From Candidatus Yanofskybacteria bacterium (GTDB lineage Bacteria > Patescibacteriota > Minisyncoccia > 2-02-FULL-40-12 > GWA2-44-9): a stretch of DNA of 14,466 bases. This document shows, piece by piece, positions 1-13,537 of the stretch (position 1 is its first letter; every line of letters begins with the position of its first letter). The translations under genes were made by a program, and so were the position numbers. The notes beneath the pieces were generated by a model. That model saw only the letters and a program-made list of their open reading frames with translations, was not told the DNA's origin and made no database searches. The DNA lies in the NCBI GenBank assembly GCA_016185505.1, contig JACPNL010000011.1, forward strand, positions 1-14,466, read 5' to 3'.

Positions 1-882
1 GGGAAGAATTATCTCTACATTCCCCACGGCCCGGTAGTAGATTTTTCAAATGCGCAAAGCGCAAAGCCGGAGGCAATTGAAAAATTCACTACCGGGCACG
101 GGCCGGAGATGTTGACTAAAAATTTTCAAGTTCAAGTTAAGAACGAGGTTGATAATTTTATGCGGTATCTTAAAAAGCTGGCAAGAGAAGAAAAATCAAT
201 TTTTGTGAAAATGGAACCTGCTTCCGATGTCGTTACGGAGACAATTTTCAGAAAAGGAATGAAGCGGTCAAAAAAAGAAATCCAGCCAGCAAAGTCAGTT
301 ATCCTTGATCTTTTCTTACCGGAAGATGAACTTTTGGCGCGGATGCACCACAAGACGAGGTATAATATCCGTCTCGCTGAGAAAAAAGGCCTGTGGCTGG
401 AAGAGTCAACCGACGTTGAAACATTCTGGAAGTTGCTCCAGAAGACCGCGAAGAAGGATAAGTTTTACACTCATGAAAAAAGTTATTACGAAAAACTTCT
501 GTCGTATTTTGCTCACGATCGTGAGAAAAATACGACAGAACTCTCAACACTACTGTTTTTTGTTTATTACAAAGACAAACCAATCGCCGGTGCAATAGTA
601 ATGTCGTATGGAGATACTGCATATTATCTGCACGGAGCGATGGACCGGAGTTACAAAGAACTAATGGCGCCGTATGCTTTGCACTGGGAGAATATAAAAT
701 TCTTGAAGCAAAAAGGATTCAAATACTACGATCTTTGGGGTATTGACGCGCAAAAGTGGCCCGGCGTTACCCGCTTCAAGCTCGGCTGGGGAGGCGATAC
801 AAAAGAATACCCCGGCTCGTTCGACATCCCTGTCTCAAAATTTTGGTATTTAATGTATAACCTTGCCAGAAAGGTATTTTAG
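1..882 (+). CDS. FemAB-family peptidyltransferase (peptidoglycan interpeptide bridge / aminoacyl-tRNA dependent); 5' partial, reading frame open to window start
   Basis: Frame 1 has no stop from position 1 to the annotated ATG at 109 (GKNYLYIPHGPVVDF...), so the gene continues upstream of the window. The C-terminal half carries FemAB-like segments (AYYLHGAMDRSYKELMAPYALHWENIKFLKQKGFKYYDLWGI). Stop TAG at 880-882. Confidence 0.55.
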   Translation, partial: GKNYLYIPHGPVVDFSNAQSAKPEAIEKFTTGHGPEMLTKNFQVQVKNEVDNFMRYLKKLAREEKSIFVKMEPASDVVTETIFRKGMKRSKKEIQPAKSVILDLFLPEDELLARMHHKTRYNIRLAEKKGLWLEESTDVETFWKLLQKTAKKDKFYTHEKSYYEKLLSYFAHDREKNTTELSTLLFFVYYKDKPIAGAIVMSYGDTAYYLHGAMDRSYKELMAPYALHWENIKFLKQKGFKYYDLWGIDAQKWPGVTRFKLGWGGDTKEYPGSFDIPVSKFWYLMYNLARKVF

Positions 883-920
883 GATAGAATGCTTTAAATA
901 GTTCTTTTTGGAGAAGTGCT

Positions 921-1337
921 TTGGCCCTTCTTAGATTAGCAGAAGAAAAAGACATTCCCCAGATCAAGAAAATTGCTGACGCGGATAAAAAATGTCTTGG
1001 TTTTATAAGTCGAGCGTGGCTCGGGGCTTCAATTGCAAAAGAGGAACTTCATATTGCCGTTCTTGATGGAGAAGTGGTTGGTTTTATCCGTTGGCACAAA
1101 CGTCGTGATGGAATGATTACCATTTACGATTTGTGTGTTGCCGAAAGATTCAGAAGAAAGAATATCGGCCAACAGCTCGTATCTGTTCTAGGTGATAGTT
1201 ATCTGCGATTAAAGTGCCATCAAGATAATCCGGCCCGCGATTTCTATAAACGTCTCGGCTTTGAAGTAGTGGGACTCGAGACCTCAAAAGGTGGAAGGAA
1301 GCTCAACATATTTGAAAGAAATAACGTCCCATTTTGA
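921..1337 (+). CDS. GNAT-family N-acetyltransferase
   Basis: 138-aa product with a GNAT acetyl-CoA binding pattern (VAERFRRKNIGQQLV ... FYKRLGFEVVG). TTG start at 921 preceded by GGAG at 910-913. The nearest in-frame upstream stop is at 885-887 and there is no ATG before 921. Confidence 0.7.
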   Translation: MALLRLAEEKDIPQIKKIADADKKCLGFISRAWLGASIAKEELHIAVLDGEVVGFIRWHKRRDGMITIYDLCVAERFRRKNIGQQLVSVLGDSYLRLKCHQDNPARDFYKRLGFEVVGLETSKGGRKLNIFERNNVPF

Positions 1338-1338
1338 A

Positions 1339-1364
1339 AAGACCGCAACCGGTCTTTATTTTAT
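1339..1364 (+). terminator. Rho-independent terminator after GNAT gene
   Basis: Stem AAGACCG (1339-1345) / CGGTCTT (1350-1356) with loop CAAC, followed by TATTTTAT. Confidence 0.6.
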
Positions 1365-1367
1365 AAA

Positions 1368-1396
1368 TATATGATATATCATAGTATCATATAATA
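1368..1396. promoter_or_regulatory. Palindromic operator-like motif (ATGATATATCAT + TATCATATAAT) overlapping a TATAAT -10 box, upstream of yerC-like gene
   Basis: TATGATATATCATA is a perfect palindrome at about 1370-1383. TCATATAAT follows at 1386-1394. The same motif recurs at 1881-1897. Confidence 0.45.
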
Positions 1397-1416
1397 GGTC
1401 TTAGTAATTTTACTAT

Positions 1417-1854
1417 ATGAAAGTTAGACCGAGAAAATTAGAAGGCAAGGATAGAATGAAGTATTTGGACACGCTTTATACGGCGATGTCCTCTTTAAAG
1501 TCCAGAGAAGAAATCAAGAGTTTTATGCGGGATTTACTGACAGAGAGCGAAAGAGTGATGCTAGGCCGCAGGATTCTAATAGCCAAGAAACTGTTGGAAG
1601 GCAAACTCTATACAGAGATTATTCAAGAAATGAAGGTGGGTATGGATACTATTATGAGAGTTCACAGGTGGCTTGAAGATGAAAATACCGGCTATGAAAA
1701 AGCCATTAAAGAATTAGACAAAACCCTGAAGGTTCGTGAAGAAAAGATAGAAAAATACAGGAACTATCCTACCACGGAATTCGGCAGGCTAAAAAGAAGA
1801 TACCCCCTACACTTCTTTTTGTTCAACTTATTCGACGAACTAAATAAAAAATAG
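1417..1854 (+). CDS. TrpR-like YerC/YecD family DNA-binding protein (alternative, better-supported start at 1456)
   Basis: LLTESERVMLGRRILIAKKLLEGKLYTEIIQEMKVGMDTIMRV matches the YerC/YecD Trp-repressor-like family. The ATG at 1456 is preceded by AAGGA (1446-1450), and B. subtilis YerC begins at the equivalent position. About 40-aa C-terminal extension. Confidence 0.6.
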   Translation: MKVRPRKLEGKDRMKYLDTLYTAMSSLKSREEIKSFMRDLLTESERVMLGRRILIAKKLLEGKLYTEIIQEMKVGMDTIMRVHRWLEDENTGYEKAIKELDKTLKVREEKIEKYRNYPTTEFGRLKRRYPLHFFLFNLFDELNKK

Positions 1855-1871
1855 TCAGTAGGTTATCATTT

Positions 1872-1897
1872 TATGATACTATGATATATCATATAAT
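1872..1897. promoter_or_regulatory. Second copy of palindromic ATGATA / TATCAT operator-like motif with TATAAT, upstream of Mur ligase gene
   Basis: TTATGATACTATGATATATCATATAAT shares ATGATATATCATATAAT with the site at 1371-1394. Confidence 0.45.
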
Positions 1898-1967
1898 TTA
1901 GTTTTTGTTTATTTTCTTTGTTTATTTTGGTTTTGTTATTCAAAAGTGTTATAAGTAAGTTATTCCT

Positions 1968-3455
1968 ATGTTCAAAGAAGGATTGTTGGACAAAATTTTA
2001 AGAAATATCAAAAAACTGATACCGAAGTCGGTATTTGATTTTTTTGCGCCGGTTTATCATGCTACTTTAGCTTATGTCGGGGCTTTTTTGTACGGATTTC
2101 CATCACGTTCAATGAAGGTCATCGGTGTGACGGGAACTAAAGGCAAGTCAACGACGGTTTTTTTGATAAGTAAGATTTTGGAGGCGGCAGAATTAACGAC
2201 ATCGGAAGGCCAAAGGACTTCCGATGTCAATGTGGAGGAGCGCCCTCCACAAGGCGGGGTGGCGGCAATCGGGTCTCTCGGATATAAAATAAAAGATAAA
2301 GAATGGCCGAATACTCTGAAAATGACAATGCCCGGCCGGTTCAAATTGCAGAAATTCCTGGCCGAAGCCAAAAGAGCCGGATGCAAGTATGTGGTTCTTG
2401 AAGTGACTTCGGAGGGCATCAAACAAAAGCGCCATATGGGAGTAAAATTTGATTGTGCCGTGTTTACTAATCTGCACGAAGAGCATATTGAAAGTCACGG
2501 TTCTTTTAAAAATTACTATAAAGCCAAGCAGGAATTATTCAAAAAGACCTCAAATATTCACGTAATTAATGCCGATGATCCCCGCGTAGATTTGTTTGGG
2601 AACTTTCCGGCAAAGCATAAGATATTTTATGGATTGGAAAAAGGGGATTTGGTTGCCGGCAAAATTCAGTCCACGGAAAAAGGAACATCATTTGAACTTT
2701 ATGGCACGCGCTTTGACACTCATTTGGCCGGAGAGTTTAATGTTATGAATTGTCTGGCGGCGCTGGCGGTGGGGGCGATGTATAAGATTGATTTGCCCGC
2801 GATGAAACCGGTTTTGGAGTCAATTAAATTTATTCCGGGAAGGATGGAGTTCATACAGCGGGAGCCGTTTGGAGTGGTGGTAGATTATGCGCACACGCCA
2901 GATTCTTTGCGAAGCGTTTATCAAACGCTTCGCAAGAATCTGGCGCAACCAACAACCAACCCCGCACCAAGCTTATCCGCTGACCGCCATTCAGAAAGGG
3001 GGCGGGCTTGGAGCGGGGCAGGCAACCGACAACCAACAACAGGAAAATTGATTTGTGTTCTTGGTGCGGCGGGCGGGGGTAGAGATAAATGGAAAAGGCC
3101 CGAATTCGGAAGAATCGCGTCGGAATACTGCGATGAGATTATTTTGACGAATGAAGACCCCTATGATGAAAATCCCCAAAGCATCATCAAAGATATTGAA
3201 AGGGGATTTTCATCGAAATTTTCAATTTTCAATTTTCAATTTTCAAATAAATCCCAATTACCAAATCACAAAATAATTCTTGACCGTCGTGAGGCAATTC
3301 AAACTGCCTTGACAGATGCCGGGGAAGGTGATACCGTTATTATCACAGGGAAGGGTTCGGAGACGTCAATGGCCGTCGCGGGGGGCAGGAAGCTCCCTTG
3401 GTCGGACAAGGATGTCGTCCGTGAAGCTCTTCGACAACAATCCTCCTGCGCATAA
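1968..3455 (+). CDS. Mur ligase family protein, MurE-like (UDP-N-acetylmuramoyl-tripeptide synthetase-like) lacking the canonical N-terminal domain; contains low-complexity in-frame insertions
   Basis: P-loop GVTGTKGKSTT, central domain VVLEVTSEGIKQKRH ... FTNLHEEHIESHG, MurE-type DYAHTPDSL motif, GAAGGGRDKWKRPEFG, C-terminal ITGKGSE. Only about 50 aa precede the P-loop, against about 110 in MurE. Confidence 0.8.
   Translation: MFKEGLLDKILRNIKKLIPKSVFDFFAPVYHATLAYVGAFLYGFPSRSMKVIGVTGTKGKSTTVFLISKILEAAELTTSEGQRTSDVNVEERPPQGGVAAIGSLGYKIKDKEWPNTLKMTMPGRFKLQKFLAEAKRAGCKYVVLEVTSEGIKQKRHMGVKFDCAVFTNLHEEHIESHGSFKNYYKAKQELFKKTSNIHVINADDPRVDLFGNFPAKHKIFYGLEKGDLVAGKIQSTEKGTSFELYGTRFDTHLAGEFNVMNCLAALAVGAMYKIDLPAMKPVLESIKFIPGRMEFIQREPFGVVVDYAHTPDSLRSVYQTLRKNLAQPTTNPAPSLSADRHSERGRAWSGAGNRQPTTGKLICVLGAAGGGRDKWKRPEFGRIASEYCDEIILTNEDPYDENPQSIIKDIERGFSSKFSIFNFQFSNKSQLPNHKIILDRREAIQTALTDAGEGDTVIITGKGSETSMAVAGGRKLPWSDKDVVREALRQQSSCA
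3217..3244 (+). repeat. 4 x AATTTTC heptamer tandem repeat inside Mur ligase CDS
   Basis: Direct reading: aattttc aattttc aattttc aattttc (encodes FSIFNFQFS). Confidence 0.9.
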
Positions 3456-3482
3456 AGCTACGGAGGACAAAGGAGAGAAGTG

Positions 3483-3866
3483 ATGTTTGAAGTGGTACTC
3501 TTTTTCGTCGTGGGAATTCTTGCGGTCGGTATTGGCGCCGCAATTGCGGTCGCCAATAACGAGGCGGTGTGGCTAGTGGCTAGCGTTATTGGAGCTGCTC
3601 TTCTTGGCATTACTACTTTCGACCTTGCTCCCCGAGCGTTGCCAACTGGAGCTCCGACTACTTCGATTGATGTCGGCGAGTATGCTCTTATGTACGTTGG
3701 TTCGTCCATGGTGGGTCATGTGGATGTGCTGACTATTAAGGATGCCGGAACACCTAGGACTTACTACCGATTTCCGACAGAAGCGTTTGATGGTGATATC
3801 AACATCAAAGCCACAAGACTAATTGTGGTGGAATCCGACGGATTCAAAAAACTGGTTCTGAAATAA
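3483..3866 (+). CDS. Hypothetical membrane protein (two N-terminal TM helices)
   Basis: Strong SD AGGAGAG (3471-3477) before the ATG at 3483 (GTG at 3480). Hydrophobic N-terminus VVLFFVVGILAVGIGAAIAVA ... LVASVIGAALLGI. GC content is higher than in neighbouring genes. Confidence 0.5.
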   Translation: MFEVVLFFVVGILAVGIGAAIAVANNEAVWLVASVIGAALLGITTFDLAPRALPTGAPTTSIDVGEYALMYVGSSMVGHVDVLTIKDAGTPRTYYRFPTEAFDGDINIKATRLIVVESDGFKKLVLK

Positions 3867-3867
3867 C

Positions 3868-3888
3868 GCGGGGTATCACCCCGTTTTA
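3868..3888 (+). terminator. Rho-independent terminator
   Basis: CGGGGT / ACCCCG stem (3869-3883) followed by TTTT. Confidence 0.55.
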
Positions 3889-4040
3889 TGTTGACGGAAA
3901 AGTTAAAAGGCCTATTGTATATTCAGTTGCCTTGACATCGACTGGAGACGGCCATTTCTTCCAACGCTACTTGCGAGGATTCTTCGCTAAAAACAAAGAA
4001 GAACAACCTGAAGAGATTTTATCGCGAAAACTTCCCCGGT

Positions 4041-4595
4041 TTGAAAATTCATCATCTTATACCTCGTAGCCGGGGCGGACAGACAGATTATTTTACTCTT
4101 TTCCCTTGGGATTTTATAAGTCACGATGCTTGGCATCAGCTTTTTTTAAATATGACCATTCAAGAGGTCTGGAATCGATTAGATGAAATTTATGCGGCTA
4201 TTTACTCGGAAGCAGAAATGGTTGTTCCATTTTGGGTGGGGGTCTGTACTCTTTACAAAGTCAGTCCCAAGAAACTCGCCAAATTTGAAGAACAAAAAAG
4301 AGATAAGCTCTCGTGGCCGGTAAGCGTCATTAAACTTCGGGATTTGTGGTTTAAGTGTTTTCGGAGTGATAATCTTGCGGATGCCAGGTCATTATTGTTG
4401 TATATGGCAATGTTTATGTTGTTTGGGTCCAAAATGATTGACCCTGAATCAATAAGCCAAGCTGACGCAGAATCACTGTTATCCCAAATACCTGATTTGC
4501 AGGATTATCAGCGTTGGGCGGTGAGCGTGTGCTTTAATCACGGCGTTAGTTCTATTTTTTCAAAAATCAACGAGTTTTATCTTGGCTCTCTTTAA
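4041..4595 (+). CDS. HNH-nuclease-motif protein (HHLIPRSRGG ... HDAWHQLF); start uncertain (TTG), possibly N-terminally degraded
   Basis: The HH-x-IP-x-S-x-GG plus H-x-AWH-x-LF pattern is typical of a small HNH (His-Me finger) family. The frame is open back to 3936 but has no ATG or GTG, so the TTG at 4041 was used. Confidence 0.4.
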   Translation: MKIHHLIPRSRGGQTDYFTLFPWDFISHDAWHQLFLNMTIQEVWNRLDEIYAAIYSEAEMVVPFWVGVCTLYKVSPKKLAKFEEQKRDKLSWPVSVIKLRDLWFKCFRSDNLADARSLLLYMAMFMLFGSKMIDPESISQADAESLLSQIPDLQDYQRWAVSVCFNHGVSSIFSKINEFYLGSL

Positions 4596-4611
4596 CGAGA
4601 GTTTTTTATTT
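4584..4611 (+). terminator. Rho-independent terminator (stop codon inside hairpin loop)
   Basis: CTCTC / GAGAG stem around the TAA, followed by TTTTTTATTTT. Confidence 0.5.
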
Positions 4612-4641
4612 TCAAGATTTATGTGGTAATATTCATATATT

Positions 4642-5142
4642 ATGGATATCGGGCGGCCACAACCAAATGACGAACCGAAACAGAGCGCAGAATTGTACCC
4701 TGCGGAATTTGCCGTTAGCAAAGTCGAAGCATCGCGGTTGCTTAAAAATTCAGGCCTGCCTTGGCTTTTGATAGTTCTGGTACTGGTACTTTTGGCTTTA
4801 TCTGTAAACATATTTAGACAGCCCGTTGCCTCGGATACGTCCGGTACTATCAGTTCATCTGTCGGGCCGACACCGGCGGTTCAGCCGAGGGTCTATACTG
4901 TTTCTTACAGGAACGGTGTTTTCAGTCCCACGAATCTAAGAATTCACGCCGGCGATACGGTGAGATTCAAGAATGAGAGTATATTTCCCATAAGAATAGT
5001 CGGAGACGATCTGGTCGGTTTCGATAGTATTGGTGACGTGCCCCAAGGAAGTTTTTTTGCTTTTACTTTTGCCGCTAGGGGAATATTCAGCTATCATAAT
5101 GAGAAGAGTCTCGACGAATCAGCTACGATAATAGTTCGATAA
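4642..5142 (+). CDS. Membrane-anchored cupredoxin-like (plastocyanin-fold-like) domain protein, no obvious Cu ligands
   Basis: TM helix LPWLLIVLVLVLLALSV, then a beta-rich domain YTVSYRNGVFSPTNLRIHAGDTVRFKNES...FSYH that resembles cupredoxin_1-like domains. The function call is weak. Confidence 0.35.
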   Translation: MDIGRPQPNDEPKQSAELYPAEFAVSKVEASRLLKNSGLPWLLIVLVLVLLALSVNIFRQPVASDTSGTISSSVGPTPAVQPRVYTVSYRNGVFSPTNLRIHAGDTVRFKNESIFPIRIVGDDLVGFDSIGDVPQGSFFAFTFAARGIFSYHNEKSLDESATIIVR

Positions 5143-5156
5143 TATGCGATACCAAT

Positions 5157-5218
5157 ATACTAATTCATACTAATGATACGAATAGTGTTTCGTTCTTCCA
5201 TTAGTATAATTAGTATGC
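5157..5218. repeat. Long imperfect inverted repeat (arms ATACTAATTCATACTAATG / CATTAGTATAATTAGTAT, 23-nt loop)
   Basis: The right arm (5199-5218) is the reverse complement of the left arm (5157-5175) apart from a one-nucleotide bulge. Each arm is itself a direct repeat of ATACTAAT. Confidence 0.7.
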
Positions 5219-5249
5219 ATTCGTATATTAGCATCGCGATAGTGTTAGC

Positions 5250-5417
5250 ATGAGAAATCTTTTAACCGTACAAATTGAGTCATATCTGGGCGCGGTATTT
5301 ATATCTCTTTTCGCGTTGTTTTTTATCGCGTTGATTTTCATTGTTATGAAAAACTTTGACTCGGAACTTAGCGTTATGCAATCTGAAAACCTCGAAGTTA
5401 AAATCTCTCCACGATGA
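5250..5417 (+). CDS. Putative 55-aa single-TM micro-protein, translationally coupled (ATGA overlap) to downstream gene
   Basis: MRNLLTVQIESYLGAVFISLFALFFIALIFIVMKNFDSELSVMQSENLEVKISPR. Its stop TGA (5415-5417) overlaps the ATG (5414-5416) of the next gene. No SD. Absent from the ORF track because it is short. Confidence 0.3.
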   Translation: MRNLLTVQIESYLGAVFISLFALFFIALIFIVMKNFDSELSVMQSENLEVKISPR

Positions 5418-6247
5418 TTCGATTAGGGCCCTTACTATTTATCAAGGAAGTAGTTCTTTTTGGCCTTACGCTGGCTCTTGGTCTCTATACCGCTTATTAT
5501 TACTCTTTTTACTTTACCGATCTGGTTCAGAATGGAATGGTGAATTTTACGCCGGCTGATCTGATTATTTTGGCTATTTTGTTCGTCGCTATTTTCTTTG
5601 TGGCGCGGCACAAGAGGGTTGCCCGCTTTTCCTTCAGGTTCTTTCTTATATTGATCGTCTTTTCCGGAACTCAAGTTGTGTTGGGCACTATTCTGCCTTC
5701 GCCTTGGGACTTGTTGTTTGCGGTTATCTTTACTTTAATATTCTCTATCGGTATTAATGTGTTGGTTCACAATCTAGGTATTATTCTTGGAATTGCCGGT
5801 ATTGCGGCTGTATTCGGTCTCTCTATTTCAATTGAGTTCGGGCTTGTCCTGTTGGTTGTTCTTTCTTTATATGACATAGTGGCCGTTTATGTGACAAAGC
5901 ACATGGTGACTATGGCCAGAAGTATGGTCGAAGGCGGTGCGGTGTTTGGATTTTTAATTCCGTTTGAGTTCAAAGGATTTTTTTATGGAAGAGATGAGGC
6001 AAAGGCCGGAATAGGGGAGAATTTCATGATACTTGGTTCGGGAGATATCGGATTGCCGCTTATTTTTGCGGTTTCTCTGGTTAGGGTTTCTCTGATATCC
6101 GCGATAATTACGGCCACATTCTCTTTGCTGGGATTATTTATTACTCACCTTCTTTTTATAAACCAAGGACAGCGAAGGGCAATGGCGGCTTTGCCACCGA
6201 TCGCGACACTTACAATAATTGGTTACCTTGTAACCCAATTATTGTAA
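5414..6247 (+). CDS. Polytopic membrane protein, presenilin / signal-peptide-peptidase-like (A22 family-like) intramembrane aspartyl protease candidate
   Basis: About 8 TM segments. Candidate catalytic motifs sit in TM helices: LSLYDIVAVY (YD), ILGSGDIGLPLIF (GxGD) and AALPPIA (PAL-like). Confidence 0.45.
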   Translation: MIRLGPLLFIKEVVLFGLTLALGLYTAYYYSFYFTDLVQNGMVNFTPADLIILAILFVAIFFVARHKRVARFSFRFFLILIVFSGTQVVLGTILPSPWDLLFAVIFTLIFSIGINVLVHNLGIILGIAGIAAVFGLSISIEFGLVLLVVLSLYDIVAVYVTKHMVTMARSMVEGGAVFGFLIPFEFKGFFYGRDEAKAGIGENFMILGSGDIGLPLIFAVSLVRVSLISAIITATFSLLGLFITHLLFINQGQRRAMAALPPIATLTIIGYLVTQLL

Positions 6248-6388
6248 ATTGACCTAATTATACTAATTAACCTAATTATTCTAAATAATGCCCAATACCT
6301 AATCACCAAATGCCTAAAACAGCTTGGTCATTCGGTCATTAGAATTTATTTAGGTCAATTAGATTAATTAGAACAATTAGAATAATTT
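6248..6388. repeat. About 140-bp AT-rich palindromic intergenic element (copy A) built from 9-bp TAATTNNNC units in inverted arms; MITE-like
   Basis: Left arm ttgacc taattatac taattaacc taattattc taaataat. Right arm atttattta ggtcaatta gattaatta gaacaatta gaataatt. Strongly similar to 13350-13495. It directly abuts the ATG at 6389. Confidence 0.7.
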
Positions 6389-7804
6389 ATGAAACTTACT
6401 TTCTATGGTGGTGCTCGCCAAGTGACCGGAGCCAACTACTTGTTGGAGTTGGGCCCCGACGCAAGGTCGGGGTCAACAACCAAGTTGTTGGTTGATTGCG
6501 GGATGTTTCAGGGTTCAAGGTATGCGGAAGACCTGAACTATGAAAAATTTCCATATGATCCGGCGGAGATTAATTTTATTTTTATCACTCATAGTCATAC
6601 CGACCACGCTGGACGCTTGCCCAAGTTGTATAAAGAAGGATTCAGGGGCAAGGTCGTTGCGACAAACGCGACCCTTGATCTTATCAGAAAAGCTCTGCCG
6701 GACAACTTAAGATTGATAGAACAAGAAGCAAAAGATACTGGACGAGAACCACTGTTCTCTCTTGAGAACTTGGAAGGTGTTCTTAATTTGGTTCAGGGAG
6801 TTGATTATGAGGAAAATATTGAATTAGGTGGTGGTCTTGAAGTTAAATTACATGATGCCGGACACATATTGGGTTCTTCCATCGTGGAAATACGATGGAA
6901 GAACAAATCCGAAATCCGAAATCCGAAATCCGAAAATAATTCGAAACATCTTTACTTTACCGGTGATCTGGGGAATCCCCCGACACCCTTATTGAAATCG
7001 CCTTATTACCCCAATGATGCTGATTATGTCGTTATAGAGTCCGCCTACGGTTCAAGAACTCACGAGGATAAGGCCGAAAGAAAGAATATTTTACAGAAGA
7101 TCATAATTGAAACCATCCAAAGAGGTGGTGTGCTGACGATACCTTCGTTCGCGATGGAAAGAACGCAGGAACTTCTCTATGAACTCAATGGTCTGTTCAA
7201 CGACAATAAAATTCCCAAAGTACCCGTTTTTGTCGATTCTCCTCTGGCTACCAATTTGACCGAGGTGTACAGAAAGCATTCGGATTATTTCAATAAAGAA
7301 ACTATGTATATAATTAATTCCGGTGACGATATATTTAATTTTCCCGGGCTAAAATTCACTCGTACCACCGAAGAATCAAAACAGATAAACGATGTTACTC
7401 CGCCGAAGATAATAATTGCCGGCTCGGGAATGTCTACCGGCGGCCGGATATTGCATCACGAAAGGCGTTATCTGCAGGATCCGAATTCCACTATTCTGTT
7501 CATCGGTTATCAAGTAAAAGGTTCTTTGGGCAGGAGAATTTTGGATGAGGAAAAAGAGGTCAAAATATTCGGCGAAAAAGTTACCGTGAACTGCAAAGTG
7601 GAGGCGATAGGAGGATACTCCGCTCACGCCGACAGCGAAGGGCTTTTGGAATGGGTCAAAACCGCGAACAGCGAAGGTAAATTAAAAAAGGTATTTGTGG
7701 TGCAAGGCGAAGAGGATTCCTCATTGGCTCTCGCAAGAAAAATAGAAAGAGCGCTGGAAATTGATGCGGTGGTGCCGAAGCAAGGGGAAGGGTTCGAGTT
7801 GTAG
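6389..7804 (+). CDS. MBL-fold metallo-hydrolase, beta-CASP RNA-metabolising family (RNase J / CPSF-like ribonuclease)
   Basis: HSHTDHAG (HxHxDH), LVDCGMFQG, a beta-CASP region and C-terminal GGYSAHAD. 471 aa. Confidence 0.8.
   Translation: MKLTFYGGARQVTGANYLLELGPDARSGSTTKLLVDCGMFQGSRYAEDLNYEKFPYDPAEINFIFITHSHTDHAGRLPKLYKEGFRGKVVATNATLDLIRKALPDNLRLIEQEAKDTGREPLFSLENLEGVLNLVQGVDYEENIELGGGLEVKLHDAGHILGSSIVEIRWKNKSEIRNPKSENNSKHLYFTGDLGNPPTPLLKSPYYPNDADYVVIESAYGSRTHEDKAERKNILQKIIIETIQRGGVLTIPSFAMERTQELLYELNGLFNDNKIPKVPVFVDSPLATNLTEVYRKHSDYFNKETMYIINSGDDIFNFPGLKFTRTTEESKQINDVTPPKIIIAGSGMSTGGRILHHERRYLQDPNSTILFIGYQVKGSLGRRILDEEKEVKIFGEKVTVNCKVEAIGGYSAHADSEGLLEWVKTANSEGKLKKVFVVQGEEDSSLALARKIERALEIDAVVPKQGEGFEL
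6905..6932 (+). repeat. 4 x AAATCCG heptamer tandem repeat inside MBL-fold ribonuclease CDS
   Basis: aaatccg x4 (encodes SEIRNPKSE). Confidence 0.9.
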
Positions 7805-8032
7805 AGCGAAACTATCAAATAATTTTTTACGCCTTACGCTCCATTAACAAATCTTGCAATAATTTATCATTGTTCAGACAAAAATTTAGCACCCGTTCCT
7901 CCCTTCGGGATTTTCCGGCTAAATTTTTGGAAGATTACCTGAACAATTTCTAAATTATCTTGGATTTGTGATAAAGGAGCGTAAACGCTAGAAAAATTAC
8001 TTAACAGTTTCGCTCTTTGGATGCTTTGATTT
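7803..8032. repeat. Long palindromic element C1: about 40-bp inverted arms (GAGCGAAACTNNCAAATAATTTTTTANGCCTTNCGCTCC) enclosing a palindromic cargo capped by a UUCG hairpin
   Basis: Left arm 7804-7842 and right arm 7976-8015 are near reverse complements. The inner pairs ATTAACAAATCTTGCAATAATTTATCATTGTTCAG / CTGAACAATTTCTAAATTATCTTGGATTTGTGAT and AAAAATTTAGC / GCTAAATTTTT flank TCCCTTCGGGA. The start overlaps the TAG stop of the MBL gene. A second copy lies at 9695-10109. Confidence 0.7.
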
Positions 8033-8083
8033 TTACTCTTTGCTATTTTGCCAACAAAGTTTAATCATACACAACACAGAGCT

Positions 8084-8668
8084 TTACTTCTCCCAATTTC
8101 CGAGGCGGGGTGGGTTGTTGTTGGGCCACGTAAAGTGGCGTGGCCACCATGTGGCTTTACGCCAGTCGGCCAACATTACGAGGATTTTTACCAGCAATGG
8201 CTTGTTGTCGCGAGCTATCATCGCTATTGCGCAGGCGCGGTGCATTCCTTCGGCTATGCAAATGTCGCCGTTAGGCAGACGAGTGGCGGTTAGAGTTGTT
8301 TCCGTTCCGTTAAAATTATTCGCGATATCTCGTATATACCAGTGATTATGAACTCCCGGATGGGTGAGCAGGTCTTTGAGTCGCGGCGGCTGTTCGGGAA
8401 AAGAATTGTAGAACCATTTGCTCCAACCGTGGAACATTCCGCCTCGCCATTCGGGGATAGTTGCAAGCGGTTTGGGAACTTCGTAGAGTCCCCATTTTAA
8501 TTCTCGAGAAAACAACGGCGCATGGGTTTTCTTTCTCCATTCCTCCCACGATTTGTGCCCCTTTGCTTCCCAAAACGGTTTCCAGTGCTCAACACCTTCT
8601 TCCATCTTCCGCCAACTCTCAAAAACTTCATTAGGGGTCAGTGGTTTTATGAATTTTAATTCGTCCAT
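8084..8668 (-). CDS. Hypothetical Trp-rich protein with possible ParB/Srx-like (DGxHR-type) motif
   Basis: The only convincing minus-strand ORF (194 aa). PNGDICIAEGMHRACAIAMIARD resembles the ParB/sulfiredoxin-fold DGHHR region. Unusually rich in Trp. The overlapping plus-strand ORFs 8040-8345 are judged spurious. Confidence 0.45.
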   Translation of the reverse strand: MDELKFIKPLTPNEVFESWRKMEEGVEHWKPFWEAKGHKSWEEWRKKTHAPLFSRELKWGLYEVPKPLATIPEWRGGMFHGWSKWFYNSFPEQPPRLKDLLTHPGVHNHWYIRDIANNFNGTETTLTATRLPNGDICIAEGMHRACAIAMIARDNKPLLVKILVMLADWRKATWWPRHFTWPNNNPPRLGNWEK

Positions 8669-8757
8669 GTTCTTAAGTTATCACTTCTGTTTAATGAAGT
8701 AAAATAAAATTTCGGATACTCGATGAATTGAAATTAGCAAGTTTCTTGAACCTTTAT

Positions 8758-8799
8758 TCTTGTCTCAATTTTCCTCGTACGAGGAAAATTGAGACAAGA
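8758..8799. promoter_or_regulatory. 42-bp perfect palindrome in divergent intergenic region (candidate operator / cruciform)
   Basis: TCTTGTCTCAATTTTCCTCGTA | CGAGGAAAATTGAGACAAGA is perfectly self-complementary. It lies between the minus-strand gene start (8668) and the plus-strand gene start (8909). Confidence 0.6.
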
Positions 8800-8908
8800 G
8801 TTATTCGTATCCTATTTTTAGGGGGATAATTTTGAGTGAAGCAAAGTAAAGAGTGTGCTCTGGTTATCCCTTTGAAGAATTTGTTATAAGTTGTAAGATG
8901 AAATCATT

Positions 8909-9631
8909 ATGACAAACGATAAAAAGGGGCAACTCAACTTGCCGGCGTCTAAATTACCGGCAGAAAAACCCAAAAAAGGGGAGGATTTTAGAAAGTCGCT
9001 TCACTGGCGGGTGTTCAGGATACTTTCCGAATTTGTGGAGGGCTGGCAGTTTTTGGCCGATTTCAAAAAGACTGTTTCGTTTTTCGGTTCTGCTAGAACT
9101 CCCGAAGGCGATAAATGGTACGAGGAAGCGCGCAAGCTTGGGAAACTGGCGGCCGAGGGAGGATTTGCGGCAGTAACCGGTGGAGGTCCCGGCATTATGG
9201 AAGCGGGCAACCGCGGCGCCGTTGAGGGCAACGGCAAGTCCATTGGCATAAACATACAACTAGAAACGGAGCAAAGAATTAACCCTTATGTGCAGGAGAG
9301 TACCGCTTTCCACTATTTTTTTGTCAGAAAAGTCATGCTGTCATTTGCCGCTCAGGCGTATGTGTTTTTTCCCGGCGGGTTGGGAACGTTAGATGAGGTG
9401 TTTGAATTGGTGACTCTCATCCAAACCAAAAAAATATCAGAAAAGATCCCCGTTGTTCTGCTTGGAAAGGACTTTTGGGAGCCGATAGACAAGCTTTTAA
9501 GAGAAAATTTTTACGAAAAATATCAGACCATTGATAAAGAAGATCTCAATATTTATAAAATAGTCGACTCCGCCGAAGAGGCATATGAACTCATCAAAAA
9601 CGCCCCACCTAGAGAGGACTGGTATTATTAG
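8909..9631 (+). CDS. LOG-family protein (cytokinin riboside 5'-monophosphate phosphoribohydrolase-like; TIGR00730 / YvdD-type)
   Basis: VTGGGPGIMEAGNRGA and FPGGLGTLDEVFE are the LOG / lysine-decarboxylase-like family motifs. About 240 aa. Confidence 0.8.
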   Translation: MTNDKKGQLNLPASKLPAEKPKKGEDFRKSLHWRVFRILSEFVEGWQFLADFKKTVSFFGSARTPEGDKWYEEARKLGKLAAEGGFAAVTGGGPGIMEAGNRGAVEGNGKSIGINIQLETEQRINPYVQESTAFHYFFVRKVMLSFAAQAYVFFPGGLGTLDEVFELVTLIQTKKISEKIPVVLLGKDFWEPIDKLLRENFYEKYQTIDKEDLNIYKIVDSAEEAYELIKNAPPREDWYY

Positions 9632-9694
9632 TTGGTCAAGCCAGCTGAGCTGGCTCAACCCCACTAAATTTTGAGAAAAGGCATACTCTTGCAG

Positions 9695-10109
9695 TAGAGC
9701 GAAACTGCCAAATAATTTTTTAGCCTTCCGCTCCAGGAGAGCAGGATTCAAACTCCCATCGTCTTGAGAGACCCAAAAATGAGATGATTTCTTTGGTGTG
9801 ACGACGAAGATGTAGTTTAACACTACTTCGAGGAGGCACAACAAAGAAAGCGTCCATTTTTGGGCTCCCCCTTGGGGCGGGGCGGACTTACTTATCTGCT
9901 TCGTTGTCCAGATTCCTTCGGAATCGAGGATCCTCGATTGCTTCGCAATCGGGACTCGTCGCTTACGTACCGTTAAGGTACGCATCACTCCTCGCGCCTC
10001 GCATATAAGCAAGTCCGCTCCCGCTCAATTGATGCGAGTTTGAATCCTGCTCTCCTACGTCAACGCTAAAAAATTATCTGACCAGTTTCACTCTCTGGAT
10101 GCTTTGATT
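9695..10109. repeat. Palindromic element C2: same outer arms as C1, carrying a different, nested cargo
   Basis: TAGAGCGAAACTGCCAAATAATTTTTTAGCCTTCCGCTCC (9695-9734) matches the C1 left arm. ACGCTAAAAAATTATCTGACCAGTTTCACTC TCTGGATGCTTTGATT (10062-10109) matches the C1 right arm and tail. Confidence 0.7.
9735..10056. mobile_element. Nested 322-bp element with perfect 21-bp terminal inverted repeats (AGGAGAGCAGGATTCAAACTC ... GAGTTTGAATCCTGCTCTCCT), highly structured interior; MITE-like or structured ncRNA
   Basis: Perfect TIR 9735-9755 / 10036-10056. The interior holds several perfect hairpins: ATTCC-TTCG-GGAAT, CGATTGC-TTCG-GCAATCG, GTACC-GTTAA-GGTAC and the CGAGGATCCTCG palindrome. No ORF. 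Confidence 0.55.
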
Positions 10110-10324
10110 CAATCGATGATGTTGGAAAGAAACAAACTATTCATTCTCAAAATTTAGAGGGGTCTCGCTCCTCAACGCTAATTTTTCCGTGTTTTCCGAT
10201 TTTTCAGCGCTTCTGTGGTTAAAATTACCCAACGGCCTCGCTCCTCGGACGTTTTTATTTAATCGACGCAACAAGGGGTCTCGCTCCTTTGTGTTGTTGT
10301 GCTTGGTATTTTTGATGGGGCAGG

Positions 10325-10354
10325 TTGACAAAGCATAGCCCAATATGCTACAAT
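10325..10354 (+). promoter_or_regulatory. Near-consensus sigma70 promoter for nfeD-flotillin operon (TTGACA - 18 bp - TGCTACAAT) with palindrome AGCATA-N6-TATGCT in spacer
   Basis: TTGACA at 10325-10330. TACAAT at 10349-10354, preceded by an extended -10 TG. Inverted repeat AGCATAGCCCAATATGCT in the spacer. Confidence 0.55.
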
Positions 10355-10440
10355 ATTTTGGAAATCTCGAGTTGCCAGAAGGGCTCTCGAGATGGCAGTT
10401 CGTTCACAACTGTGGAGAGCCACGGAGAGAGGAAGGGGAT

Positions 10441-10968
10441 ATGCCACTGTTTATCGTCGCCGGGCTCATGGGGTTCCTGTTCTTCGTTGGGGCACTGATT
10501 TTCGGTGACCACGACGTCGGGCACGACCATGACTTTGATGGCGACCATGACCATGGAGGGTCGAGCGTGTTTTCGGTCTTCAATGTGTCATGGTTTCTCA
10601 TCGGGTTCGGCGGAATGGGGGCGGTTATCAGGGCCAATGACGTGGGGATGCCCGGAAGCACGATGTCCGGTCTCGCGACCGGTATTGCTTGCTGGGGCCT
10701 CGCTTTCTGCGTCATGCACCTGCTTGCAAAACAGCAGGGTGATTCAACCGTGACAGTCGCACGCATCATGAATGCGACTGGTACGGTCGTGATGTCTATT
10801 CCCGCAAACGGGGTGGGCAAGGTCCAGTGCAGTGTGGCCGGAAGCTTGCAAGAGTTTCTGGCTCGCTCGACGACACCGGTTTCGTTGTCGGAAGGTTCTC
10901 AAGTGAGAATCGTCGGCGATGCCGGTGGTGTGTACTTGGTGGAAGCTCAAACACAAGGAGGCAGGTGA
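10441..10968 (+). CDS. NfeD-like membrane protein (short NfeD / YuaF-like, partner of SPFH-flotillin)
   Basis: Start at the ATG at 10441 behind GAGGAAGGGG. The ATG at 10345 lies inside the -10 box. Two TM helices, a His/Asp-rich loop (DHDVGHDHDFDGDHDHGG) and a C-terminal beta domain. The stop overlaps the SD of the downstream flotillin gene. Confidence 0.65.
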   Translation: MPLFIVAGLMGFLFFVGALIFGDHDVGHDHDFDGDHDHGGSSVFSVFNVSWFLIGFGGMGAVIRANDVGMPGSTMSGLATGIACWGLAFCVMHLLAKQQGDSTVTVARIMNATGTVVMSIPANGVGKVQCSVAGSLQEFLARSTTPVSLSEGSQVRIVGDAGGVYLVEAQTQGGR

Positions 10969-10969
10969 C

Positions 10970-11269
10970 ATGGAGTTTTGGAAACAGCTCTCGGCAAACC
11001 TCGGATGGGTTATCGGAACAGTCCTACTGTTCATAGCCATCCTTGGTTCTCTTCGTTACGCGGCAAGCCGGTACAAGAAAGTGCCGCCAAGCCGCGTCGG
11101 GATCATCTACGGCCGTAAGCAGATCTATGAGATCCCGCAACAGGATGGAACCGTAAAGCAGGAGAAGCTTGGATTCCGCCTGCTCACCGGCGGCGGCGCG
11201 CTTGTCCTCCCGTTCTTGGAAGACTATGCCGAGTTGGACCTAAGCGCTCGACGTGATGATCGACGCTAG
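10970..11269 (+). CDS. Flotillin (SPFH-domain, FloT/YuaG-like) N-terminal fragment - interrupted by +1 frameshift near 11243-11256
   Basis: Strong SD AAGGAGG (10954-10960). MEFWKQ...VLLFIAILG TM helix, then GRKQ...FRLLTGGGALVLPFLEDYAELDLS matching flotillin (RGGGTFVFPVFEEVEKLSLEVM). The frame then runs into RRDDRR-stop. Confidence 0.7.
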   Translation: MEFWKQLSANLGWVIGTVLLFIAILGSLRYAASRYKKVPPSRVGIIYGRKQIYEIPQQDGTVKQEKLGFRLLTGGGALVLPFLEDYAELDLSARRDDRR

Positions 11270-12701
11270 AGGCACAGCTACTGTCGTGATCGGAACCGAT
11301 ACGTCGAGTCTCATCACTGCCGCTCGCAACTTCGAAGGTAAGAAGGAACAGGATATCAACCAGATTGCCCGGGAAAACCTGGAAGGCCAACTGCGGTCGA
11401 TTCTCGGCACCTTGACGGTTGAAGACCTGATCGGTGAGCGCAAGAAGCTCAATGAGGCGGTCTTGGAAGGTGCGGAGAGTGAGCTTCTGAAGCTCGGTCT
11501 GCGCATTTCCATCCTGACCATTCAGGAGATCACTGACCAGGTTAAGTACATCGAATCGCTGGGCAAAAAGCGTACCGCCGAAGTTCAGCGGGATGCTACT
11601 ATCGGCGAAGCCGAGGCGCAAAGCAAAGCCAAGATCGCGGCAAGCAACGCCACGAAAGAAGCCGAGACTGTCGCCGCGCAGAACGAAGTCAAGATCGCCG
11701 AGGCCAAGAAGGAGCGTGACGTTCAAGTTGCGCAATTCAAGGCATTGACCGATCGCGAAAAGGCGATTGCCGAACAGGCAGGCGCCATCGCGGCGGCCGA
11801 AGCGGACAAGACAGTGCGTCAGAGGAAGGTTGAGGCCGAAGCGGCCGAGACCACTGCGCGTATCCAACTCGCCGATCAGGAGACTGCTCGTGTCGAGAAG
11901 GAACTGCAGTTCCAGGTCATCAAACCGGCCGAAGCGCAGAAGCAGGCCGCGGTTATCAGGGCCGAGGGAAACAAGCAGACAGGTATCCTCGACGCCGAAA
12001 CCAAGAAGAGGCAACAGGTCATTCAAGCTGAAGCGGCTTTCGAAGCAGCTGCCAAGCAGGCCGACGCGACTCGAACCAAGGCTGAGGCTGATGGTGATGC
12101 TGCGGCAGCAATCGGCAAGGGCGACGCCGAAGCCGTACGTCTAAAGCTCACAGCTGAAGCCGATGGCGAGAAGGCAAAGCGTCTTGCCGCCGCCACGGGT
12201 ACCGAAGCTGAACTGCGGGCGGCTGCATCCGGCAAGGAAGCAGAACTGCTTGCAGAGGCACGCGGTGCTGAAGCAAAGCTCCTCGCAGAGGCCAAGGGTA
12301 AGGAACAGCTGGCTCTCGCGCTTGCCAAACTGGATCAGACAGGCAAACTTCTACAGGTGCTCGACGCAGCCCCCAAGGTTGCAGAGGCCCTGGGCGAAGC
12401 TCTCGCCAAGGCGCTCGGGCCCGACGGCCTTGCCAACGTGTTCGGCCAGATGGCCGCTCCGCTCGGCAGTGTTGACTCGATCCGGATGTATGATTTCGGC
12501 GGGAATGGCCATAACGGTAATGGTGCCGGATCGTTGGCCAAGTATGCCAACATCACACCGGAGCTGTTCTTCAATTTCGTCTCGAAGGCGACGGCACTGG
12601 GTTTCGGGTCTTTGCTCGAGAAGGTCGGGCTGACCTCCGAGATTCTGGACGACATGACAACTTCGGTTTCAACAGGGGCCGATGCATCCGAATCGAAGTA
12701 G
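11253..12701 (+). CDS. Flotillin C-terminal portion (SPFH core, EA-rich flotillin coiled-coil repeats, C-terminal domain); continues the 10970 frame after +1 shift (frame open from 11244)
   Basis: LDVMIDARGTATVVIG...ITDQVKYIESLGKKRTAEVQRDATIGEAEAQSKAKIA aligns with B. subtilis FloT. Long AEA/EAKA repeats follow. Confidence 0.8.
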   Translation: MMIDARGTATVVIGTDTSSLITAARNFEGKKEQDINQIARENLEGQLRSILGTLTVEDLIGERKKLNEAVLEGAESELLKLGLRISILTIQEITDQVKYIESLGKKRTAEVQRDATIGEAEAQSKAKIAASNATKEAETVAAQNEVKIAEAKKERDVQVAQFKALTDREKAIAEQAGAIAAAEADKTVRQRKVEAEAAETTARIQLADQETARVEKELQFQVIKPAEAQKQAAVIRAEGNKQTGILDAETKKRQQVIQAEAAFEAAAKQADATRTKAEADGDAAAAIGKGDAEAVRLKLTAEADGEKAKRLAAATGTEAELRAAASGKEAELLAEARGAEAKLLAEAKGKEQLALALAKLDQTGKLLQVLDAAPKVAEALGEALAKALGPDGLANVFGQMAAPLGSVDSIRMYDFGGNGHNGNGAGSLAKYANITPELFFNFVSKATALGFGSLLEKVGLTSEILDDMTTSVSTGADASESK

Positions 12702-12714
12702 CTCGTTCATTCAT

Positions 12715-12748
12715 AGAGGTCGGGGTAACAACCCCGACCTCTATTCTT
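12715..12748 (+). terminator. Terminator-like 12-bp perfect hairpin after flotillin
   Basis: AGAGGTCGGGGT-AACA-ACCCCGACCTCT followed by ATTCTT (weak U-tract). Confidence 0.5.
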
Positions 12749-12764
12749 AGGAGAGGAGAAAACA

Positions 12765-13220
12765 GTGAAGTACCAACTCACAGAAGGTATTCCGGACGCT
12801 CTCGTGATTCACTGTGCCGATCCGCGTTTTCAGGAAGCCTTCAGAGCCTACCTGAAGAATGATCTCGGTATACGTATGCCGATGATCATAGCGTTGCCTG
12901 GCGTGACCAGCCACTTCGGGATGCAGATGATGTTTCCGAAGAACTGGTACACAGTAAGGTCACACCTCAAGACCATGACAGATCGTCACGATGTGGCACG
13001 AGTCGTCCTTATCAATCACGACGACTGCAAGGGCTACGCCAAGATTGCCGATAAGCTTGGTGGTCTGGTGAAAGTTCCAGAGTGGCAGCGCAAGCACCTC
13101 CATGGCCTGGCAGAGTTTATCAGAAAGGAATATCTGCCTCACGCCTCTTTTGAACTCTACCAAGCGCATATCGTTGAGAAAGGCAGTGTGCGTGAGGTCG
13201 AGTTCGAGAAAATCTTGTAG
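12765..13220 (+). CDS. Hypothetical protein with beta-carbonic-anhydrase-like CxDxR ... HxxC motif arrangement (HCADPRF ... NHDDCKGY)
   Basis: GTG start behind AGGAGAGGAG (12749-12758). 151 aa. The spacing of the Cys-Asp-Arg and His-x-x-Cys motifs resembles the zinc ligands of minimal beta-CAs. The function call is tentative. Confidence 0.5.
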   Translation: MKYQLTEGIPDALVIHCADPRFQEAFRAYLKNDLGIRMPMIIALPGVTSHFGMQMMFPKNWYTVRSHLKTMTDRHDVARVVLINHDDCKGYAKIADKLGGLVKVPEWQRKHLHGLAEFIRKEYLPHASFELYQAHIVEKGSVREVEFEKIL

Positions 13221-13263
13221 GTTCTACGCCGCCGGTCTGATACTTACAACGGCTAACGCCGAC

Positions 13264-13312
13264 GCCCCCTTCGGGGGCCAGAGGGGGACACGTGTCCCCC
13301 TTTTAATTTTTT
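13264..13312 (+). terminator. Tandem intrinsic terminators (CCCCC-UUCG-GGGGG hairpin, then GGGGGACAC/GTGTCCCCC perfect hairpin + TTTTAATTTTTT)
   Basis: 13264-13278 GCCCCCTTCGGGGGC. 13283-13300 is a perfect 18-bp palindrome followed by a T-run. Confidence 0.8.
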
Positions 13313-13349
13313 AAAAAGTGTGATAATATAAATACAAAATATAAACACC

Positions 13350-13495
13350 CCCAATTATTCTAATTATACTAATTATTCTAATTACTCTAAATAATGACTA
13401 ATCCCCAATCATTAAATGACCAAATCGATTTAGTCATTGAGTCGTTGGGATTTATTTAGGTCAATTAGGTTAATTAGAATAATTAGGTTAATTTA
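13350..13495. repeat. Copy B of the about 140-bp TAATTNNNC-unit palindromic element (see 6248-6388)
   Basis: ctaattatactaattattctaattactctaaataatg ... atttatttaggtcaattaggttaattagaataattaggttaatt. The central part contains the near-perfect palindrome AATGACCAAATCGATTTAGTCATT. Confidence 0.7.
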
Positions 13496-13537
13496 TTGCC
13501 CTGTTTGGTTCCTGTGCTTTGTGTTTTAGCTATGTAA

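Follow-up and report, generated by a model that had tools for sequence, protein, structure and literature searches.

The window analysed here is a stretch of 14,466 nucleotides (nt) from a Candidatus Yanofskybacteria bacterium (GenBank assembly GCA_016185505.1, contig JACPNL010000011.1, positions 1–14,466). On its forward strand, on which the element described below and all of its parts also lie, it encodes a MurE-type Mur ligase of 495 amino acids (aa) at 1968–3455, with the Pfam domains Mur_ligase_M and Mur_ligase_C; an NCBI protein from a Candidatus Yanofskybacteria metagenome-assembled genome is identical to it. A preliminary description of this DNA had proposed that the gene carries a GC-rich, in-frame hairpin insertion bounded by CAA-rich direct repeats. 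We found that the hairpin belongs to a discrete 63-nt unit (2961–3023) that is present or absent at otherwise colinear sites. Our analysis further indicates that this unit is probably one copy of a small, non-autonomous, hairpin-forming mobile element of Candidatus Yanofskybacteria and related Parcubacteria, whose behaviour is like that of the Rickettsia palindromic elements (RPEs).

The MurE gene and its 63-nt insertion

MurE relatives range from 420 to 509 aa in length, and the differences are confined to three hypervariable in-frame sites (alignment A1). The element occupies the second of these sites, and the spacing from DYAHTP to AGGGRD varies from 22 to 56 residues among the homologues. 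Extra residues between DYAHTPDSL...RK and GKLICVLGAAGGGRD in the open reading frame (ORF) at 1968–3455 had been noticed before and are indeed present. However, the insertion had been put at about 30 residues; of the ~33 extra residues, only 21 (aa 332–352, nt 2961–3023) are the element. Residues 324–356 align with a single residue of T. maritima MurE (4BUB), which forms the turn between a helix and the strand leading to the GxGGxxD motif. In an AlphaFold2 model built on A1, residues 330–356 have a predicted local distance difference test (pLDDT) score below 50 and no secondary structure, and the loop is flanked by a helix (311–326) and a strand (361–365). The alignment and the model suggest that the insertion site is a permissive turn or loop, and the element is predicted to be read through as 21 residues of disordered loop. 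Among 120 homologues, the window MurE alone has the element at the second site, indicating that the element is recent there. This comparison bears out the idea of a lineage-specific, in-frame hairpin insertion: conservation across distant homologues, which would have spoken against it, was not seen, as 119 of the 120 homologues lack the element there and the length of the site is hypervariable.

An empty counterpart of the site was found on a syntenic ENA contig (L001), which carries Trp repressor, MurE and, further along, SPP and RNase J. Its MurE homologue (P0013) reads RKNLVQPTTNNQQLTTS at the second site, and the DNA there reads ...CAACCAACAACCAAC|AACCAACAATTAACAACA..., with the hairpin absent. 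The window has the same 15 nt, followed by CCCGC...GCGGGGCAGGC (63 nt, 2961–3023) and then by AACCGACAACCAACAACA. The window thus has exactly 63 nt more than L001, with no other length difference. The boundaries can equally be written 2960–3022 owing to a one-C shift, and the inserted DNA encodes aa 332–352, PAPSLSADRHSERGRAWSGAG.

The empty site also settles the role of the CAA-rich repeats. To the left of the element lies a CAA/ACC-rich linker (2946–2960, encoding QPTTN and ending ..AAC) that is found in L001 as well; to the right lies a second, likewise pre-existing linker (3024–3041, NRQPTT), where L001 has AACCAACAATTAACAACA. Since L001 has the CAA/ACC linker without the hairpin, the repeats are a pre-existing low-complexity linker, and neither the ends of the element nor a duplicated target; the CAACCAAC repeats on either side are bystanders that belong to the linker. 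Both repeats do exist, CAACCGACAACCAACAAC at 3023–3040 as described and CAACCAACAACCAAC at 2946–2960, one base away from the place first given. The proposal that they bound or belong to the insertion did not survive the comparison with L001, which excludes CAA repeats as the termini of the element. Nor is CAACAACCAA-hairpin-CAACAACCAA a unit, as the repeats pre-exist in L001 and ~50 other copies of the hairpin lack them as a rule. The motif itself is over-represented in the window: allowing up to one mismatch, CAACAACCAA occurs 6 times versus 1.07 expected, and none of 200 shuffles reached 6.

From the outside in, the element has an outer stem of 13 bp, an internal loop of 4 nt, an inner stem of 5 bp and a variable apical loop; a tail of 5–6 nt follows at the 3′ end. 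The 5′ arm of the outer stem, C CCCGCACCAAGC, lies at 2960–2972 and the 3′ arm, GCTTGGAGCGGG G, at 3006–3018. The stem recognised earlier, CCCCGCACCAAGC against GCTTGGAGCGGGG, is therefore correct, with 12 of 13 positions complementary; the exception is an A/A mismatch at 2966/3012, where most copies have T. In the inner stem, CCGCT (2977–2981) pairs with GGCGG (3001–3005), and the apical region at 2982–3000 comprises GACCGCC and the variable loop (alignment A2, see below). The loop varies between copies and forms an extra nested hairpin in those of PriA, S1 and Wzy (A2). The 3′ tail GCAGGC (3018–3023; family consensus GYARGC) is absent from L001 and so belongs to the inserted DNA. The minimum free energy of the 2940–3045 fold is −35.8 kcal/mol, with z = −1.81 against dinucleotide shuffles, which is modest alone; the significance of the hairpin therefore rests on its recurrence elsewhere. 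No Rfam family matched the window at the gathering threshold, and a search of 2900–3080 with E values up to 10 returned only chance-level microRNA matches.

The MurE gene carries further hairpins and inserts. Directly upstream of the element, and not part of it, lies a 23-bp near-perfect coding hairpin, TPDSLRSVYQTLRKNLA (2896–2945, forward strand). It is located entirely in conserved coding sequence; L001 has this hairpin with two compensated G-C to A-T differences, and a second MurE locus (L174) is without it. The fold z score is about −8.5 in the window and −9.9 in L001. Site 1 (2190–2262) holds two small in-frame hairpins, ACATCGGAAG..CTTCCGATGT and GTGGAGG..CCTCCAC. Relatives have variants of each (TSDV...TSDV; VEGxPPQGG), indicating older shared insertions, and no copies were found at other loci within the collected locus DNA. 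Just before site 3, a 13-bp stem, GATGAAAATCCCC / GGGGATTTTCATC, spans the conserved DENP...RGFSS codons at 3164–3215. AT-rich in-frame inserts are found at site 3 (FSIFNFQFSNKSQLPNH, 3205–3285) and in the RNase J gene (KSEIRNPKSENNSK, 6895–6950). In many other Yanofskybacteria, site 2 is occupied by a peptide of the type SEIxNPKSETNSKF.IQNSK; site 2 is thus a hot spot for several unrelated insert families.

Copies of the element in protein and rRNA genes

Copies of the element were sought with exact-match DNA patterns. A scan with a stem pattern, using one genome per species, revealed 8 loci: 4 on contigs of Yanofskybacteria metagenome-assembled genomes (MAGs) and 4 on contigs of MAGs that bear the label 'Saccharibacteria'. 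The interior, which the pattern leaves unspecified, was nearly identical across the 8 loci, and both orientations were seen. A second scan, of metagenomes, with a pattern from the 5′ half of the element gave 44 loci, including 2 false matches and 1 cut by a contig end. In the remaining loci the unspecified 3′ half, GGGGCGGGCTTGGTGCGGG, was conserved. Overall, ~50 copies were found at ~23 distinct, unrelated sites in Candidatus Yanofskybacteria and related groundwater MAGs or Parcubacteria. The 36 distinct copies were aligned (A2), and a covariance model built from A2 (R1) recovered each known copy at 65–96 bits, matching the window at 2957–3025 with 90.9 bits. In viral contigs the specific pattern had no match; a shorter pattern gave at least 120 chance matches, and among those examined none had both arms. 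In the full-text literature searched, whose coverage leaves out most subscription journals, the element is without a description for the Candidate Phyla Radiation.

These copies bear directly on whether the hairpin could have arisen in place, through slippage of CAA/ACC codon repeats and local inverted duplication (template switching) private to this MurE. The low-complexity linker and the excess of CAACAACCAA fit such an origin, as do other coding hairpins of the window, which resemble perfected quasi-palindromes, and the 7 strong hairpins in MurE versus 2.1 in synonymous-codon shuffles. However, many genomes share the same 57-nt core, internal loop and apical sequence included, at ~23 unrelated sites in all, no part of the element is an inverted copy of neighbouring MurE sequence, and L001 differs from the window by a clean block of 63 nt. 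We consider this origin extremely unlikely, and for the hairpin it is refuted by the genome and metagenome copies; for the CAA linker and the neighbouring hairpin at 2896–2945 it is possible. A genome-wide 'hairpinisation' of coding DNA was also considered and rejected, as the excess is only modest (18 versus 10.7 in synonymous-codon shuffles) and concentrated in MurE.

The same scans speak to the quality of the DNA. The window is a short MAG contig (14.5 kb), and a chimeric or misassembled hairpin could be imagined. This reading is refuted by the scan copies: near-identical ones occur in independent NCBI, ENA, JGI and Logan assemblies from different places (Rifle, Hainich and others), always with intact host ORFs. 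We regard the probability of an assembly or sequencing artefact as negligible.

All copies within long ORFs are in frame and free of stop codons, and they fall into 12 protein families. The hosts identified by Pfam are PriA, TrpRS, Dus, GyrB, ribosomal protein S1, AspRS, a SpoU methylase, a Wzy_C ligase and a PAP2 phosphatase; one further host, a membrane protein, had no Pfam match. The copy lies directly after KMSK in TrpRS, at the N-terminus in GyrB and in the OB domain in AspRS. A second MurE (P0022, locus L174) has a divergent copy that is oppositely oriented and lies elsewhere in the gene, after GFPS, and P0017 retains a shortened remnant at this post-GFPS site. A query with the frame-B peptide of the window revealed an additional membrane-protein host (P0241); two other proteins matched by this peptide are unrelated repeat proteins and were discarded as hosts. 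A concatenated three-frame peptide query against proteins gave 12 candidates and no scored match. Three readings of the element were seen in hosts: sense frame 0 (PAPSLSADRHSE.GRAWSG), sense frame +1 (TPHQADPLTAIKKGGGLGAGQA) and antisense (APHQARP..WRSAEKLGAG). Read-through is predicted to yield peptides such as NLAQPTTNPAPSLSADR, AWSGAGNR and TPHQADPLTA....

Inside long ORFs the core measures 54, 57, 66 or 69 nt, plus a 6-nt tail, and all these lengths are multiples of three, which argues for translation and against removal at the RNA level. If the element were an intervening sequence, excised from the transcript in the manner of introns or of the intervening sequences of rRNA, the MurE protein would lack the 21 residues. 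The rRNAs of the Candidate Phyla Radiation carry insertions, copies of the element do occur in a 5S paralogue and in an rRNA spacer, and its long perfect stem could plausibly be a substrate of RNase III. Excision is nevertheless very unlikely: no copy in a long ORF breaks the frame or contains a stop codon, the length steps among loop variants and remnants are multiples of three, as expected only if they are translated, and we know of no bacterial pathway that cuts and rejoins mRNA at such hairpins.

Outside protein genes, the element is associated with rRNA genes. In a second class of copies, T-A replaces C-G as the closing pair and the tail reads ACWTSC; in several populations these copies lie ~100–170 nt downstream of a 5S rRNA gene detected by Rfam. 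Reading of the sequence showed that the element there splits a tandem 5S paralogue between CAGAAG and TGAAAT, in the apex region of a 5S rRNA helix. Deletion of CATGT, the 57-nt core and an A (63 nt) restores gap-free colinearity with the neighbouring first 5S gene (L050, L012). The second tandem 5S gene carrying the element lies at 12055–12260 in L050, 1–215 in L012 and 1080–1300 in L045; Rfam did not detect this paralogue. Other copies in RNA regions were found in the 23S–5S spacer (L018, L043) and in a 5S 3′ fragment (L020), and L009-type copies lie 1.3–1.9 kb upstream of a 16S gene. The 5S paralogue of L045 contains further hairpins besides the 63-nt element, and in L020 a 5S gene bears an AT-rich hairpin insert.

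Conservation, turnover and mode of insertion

The alignment showed that both sequence and structure of the element are maintained. In A2, 97.1% of cells are in standard pairs, compared with 31–51% when the partners are slid, and the outer helix is 96.4% paired over the 36 distinct copies. Two pairs covary: the closing pair is C-G in 24 copies and U-A in 9, and an inner-stem pair at columns 23/59 is G-C in 32 and A-U in 4. Two further outer-stem pairs are compensated in the L174 copy, the hairpins nested in the loops of the PriA and S1 copies contain compensated changes, and the TrpRS copies L175 and L176 share a compensated G-C to A-T pair. Orthologous copies are 88–100% identical, whereas their 240-nt flanks are 61–94% identical (69–82% for the protein-gene pairs of PriA, TrpRS and GyrB). 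The TrpRS copies found by protein search gave a similar picture, with 85–93% identity in the element versus 64–81% in the flanks.

TrpRS revealed the turnover of the element. Among 120 TrpRS orthologues, ~73 have the empty site KMSKT|GDEG, ~9 have full-length copies and ~25 have remnants such as TPHQSKLSAGQA or TPSAGSGQA, shortened in frame by internal deletion, with both ends of the element kept. At the DNA level, the TrpRS remnant of L177 keeps the outer 8 bp and the tail. As most sites are empty and about a quarter hold remnants, the element is dispensable at this locus, and its copies decay by in-frame internal deletions.

The two comparisons of empty and filled sites, in MurE and 5S, gave 63 nt each and no target duplication. 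In copies of the first class (class (a)), the left flank almost always ends in ..AC, the GYARGC tail is kept, and both junctions can be written R^C, shiftable by one base. Of 34 loci tested for flanking direct repeats, only four (the window, L007, L014 and L036) gave a significant result (p ≤ 0.02), with inconsistent spacing, and target-site duplication was rejected as a general feature. At none of the collected loci was a gene flanked by two copies. Recognition of a folded single strand is suggested by several features together: conservation of sequence and structure, absence of a duplication, the asymmetric tail and the ..AC left flank. A plausible course is that the element was inserted as DNA into the CAA-rich linker already in place, at an A–C junction (..CAA^C..) and with no target-site duplication, as a folded strand recognised by a trans-acting enzyme whose chemistry, we infer, may resemble that of IS200/IS605 or REP-RAYT systems (introduced below). 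It would survive in essential genes only with a permissive loop, an open frame and a length divisible by three; it would then be translated as a disordered surface segment and eroded by internal deletion.

Several results weigh against a mobile element. R1 found no further copy in the 366 kb of collected loci and no second one in the window, and the copy density is therefore low. In protein genes, 11 copies are in sense orientation versus 2 in antisense, though more of the antisense frames are open. Orthologous copies are more conserved than the flanks in essential genes (85–99% versus 64–82% identity), which would not be expected of an insert that is purely selfish and decays; the exact-match patterns make the 5′ half look more conserved than it is, whereas the 3′ half and the copies found through proteins are unaffected. 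Given the four loci with flanking repeats, some local duplication may also occur. Finally, tblastn with IS608 TnpA and E. coli RAYT queries, a weak test, gave nothing below E = 0.7 in the 366 kb.

An alternative is a host-functional nucleic-acid module, an RNA or DNA structure that a cellular factor would recognise, for example a double-strand-specific RNase III-type processing site or a protein-binding site, and that selection would keep in mRNAs and rRNA operons, with its dispersal being secondary or the module being a domesticated former mobile element. Orthologous copies more identical than their flanks, compensated stem changes at fixed loci, the sense bias, the low copy number and the recurrence in rRNA operons (5S paralogue, 23S–5S spacer and downstream of 5S) are all consistent with such a module. 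However, most TrpRS sites are empty and about a quarter are deleted remnants, and MurE tolerates the absence of the element in 119 of 120 relatives. In addition, the copies in rRNA operons and those in mRNAs are oriented in opposite ways, which argues against a sequence-specific RNA-binding factor, there is no match to an Rfam family, and part of the conservation is due to the exact-match ascertainment. We therefore consider a host-functional module possible but rather unlikely, and favour the mobile element.

A related and equally tentative proposal is that the 63-nt hairpin is a module constrained in sequence and structure and recognised by a dedicated factor in these ultra-small bacteria. 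It may be a new single-strand-hairpin mobile element, with no duplication and a ..A^C.. target, that may be specialised in loops of essential genes and rRNA genes. Alternatively, it may be a domesticated RNA or DNA signal of translation, replication and cell-wall genes and of the rRNA operon. Conservation above that of flanking synonymous sites and stem changes compensated in place are compatible with both versions.

Other hairpins and repeats of the window were recorded separately. A CAA motif had also been linked to a hairpin in the RNase J gene; a match does lie at 6474–6483, just after the hairpin at 6454–6472, but this hairpin belongs to a different, shorter family, and its copies elsewhere are not flanked by the motif. 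This mini-hairpin (CCCCGAC-N5/6-GTCGGGG) recurs in the 5S paralogue (L037 at 791, L045 at 1130 and L046 at 3920) and seems to form a dispersed hairpin family of its own, shorter than that of the element; in L001 the corresponding RNase J loop holds a different GC hairpin. Two intergenic copies of an AT-rich, internally palindromic repeat of 144 nt (81% identity) lie at 6247–6390 and 13353–13496, and related 30-nt pieces occur in other Yanofskybacteria loci. An imperfect palindrome of ~320 nt at 9735–10056 has outer arms of 26 nt (96% complementary) and inner arms of 28 nt; the outer arms resemble tRNA T-arm/acceptor ends, and neither ARAGORN nor Rfam made a call in this region. A FemAB-family gene contains a 48-nt near-perfect palindrome at 495–542 (ACTTCTGTCGTATTTT...AAAATACGACAGAACT), and an exact 24-nt tandem duplication (TGTGAACAAAAAAGATATTTTCAC, twice) lies at 13726–13773. 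The region 10345–13220 has a GC content of 55–63%, versus ~40% elsewhere in the window; it includes an SPFH/Band_7 gene (11253–12701) with GGCCGAAGCGG-type repeats and a Pro_CA_2 gene, and may be foreign DNA.

Relation to known repeat families and significance

The main precedent is provided by the RPEs, frequent in-frame palindromic insertions in Rickettsia (Ogata et al., 2000, via PMC10969869 and PMC3184786). Like the RPEs, the element is a dispersed palindromic repeat of bacteria with reduced genomes, lies in frame in many unrelated housekeeping genes (12 families), gives rise to an extra translated peptide at fold-compatible positions and also occurs outside protein-coding sequence. Unlike the RPEs, it measures 63 nt rather than ~105–150 bp, its hosts are Candidate Phyla Radiation/Parcubacteria and not the genus Rickettsia, it is GC-rich in an AT-rich genome, and its copy density in the DNA examined is much lower. 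Moreover, one and the same element is read in three combinations of frame and orientation and is also inserted in a 5S rRNA paralogue. It is set apart from the RPEs by length and host, and not by comparison with RPE sequences.

Repetitive extragenic palindromic (REP) sequences and the REPIN-RAYT systems are also short, GC-rich, imperfect palindromes that are conserved in sequence and structure, persist for long and are without a signature of terminal inverted repeats plus duplication. For these, processing in folded, single-stranded form by a trans-acting Y1 HUH enzyme has been proposed. However, REPs are extragenic, 20–40 nt long and usually present in hundreds per genome, whereas the element is largely intragenic, with one copy per locus in the 366 kb. 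REPs also bear a tag, GTAG or CGTC, at one of their ends (PMC3733652); the A2 copies begin (A)C-CCCGC... and end ...GCGGG-GYARGC, with neither tag. The ends and miniatures of the IS200/IS605 insertion sequence (IS) family appear to share with the element the absence of a target duplication, asymmetric ends around a hairpin and a short conserved flank (..AC). Yet the element has one hairpin only, in place of distinct hairpins at the left and right ends, neither tnpA nor tnpB lies near it, its target is only 2–3 nt, and its chemistry is purely inferred.

[quoted passage not shown] Unlike MITEs, the element has no target-site duplication in the MurE and 5S pairs and is smaller than most MITEs, and no similarity to any IS end was seen. 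As candidate terminal inverted repeats, its 13-bp arms lie at or near the ends, but the 3′ end has an extra 5–6-nt tail. Its ends are also unlike the RYYYAAC ... GTTRRRY cores of integron attC sites, and its copies lie in housekeeping genes and rRNA operons. By these defining features, the element is not a member of the RPE, REP/REPIN, MITE or attC families. The hairpins at the 5S helix apex region and in the 23S–5S spacer resemble the intervening or expansion insertions in rRNAs of the Candidate Phyla Radiation; in contrast to those insertions, the same sequence is also found in protein genes, where it stays translatable.

Until now, the remodelling of essential proteins by in-frame palindromic repeats has been a Rickettsia curiosity. 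The presence in the Candidate Phyla Radiation of an element that is functionally similar, yet apparently unrelated and much smaller, suggests convergence. Where a genome is tiny and intergenic space is nearly absent, selfish hairpins may be driven into rRNA helices and into protein loops that tolerate them. The element accounts for part of the hypervariability in protein length of Yanofskybacteria and serves as a warning for annotation and structure prediction, as such loops originate from a repeat element and did not evolve as part of the protein. It also ties the protein insertions of these bacteria to their long-noted rRNA insertions, and it offers a clean, short and conserved substrate for finding its mobilising enzyme.

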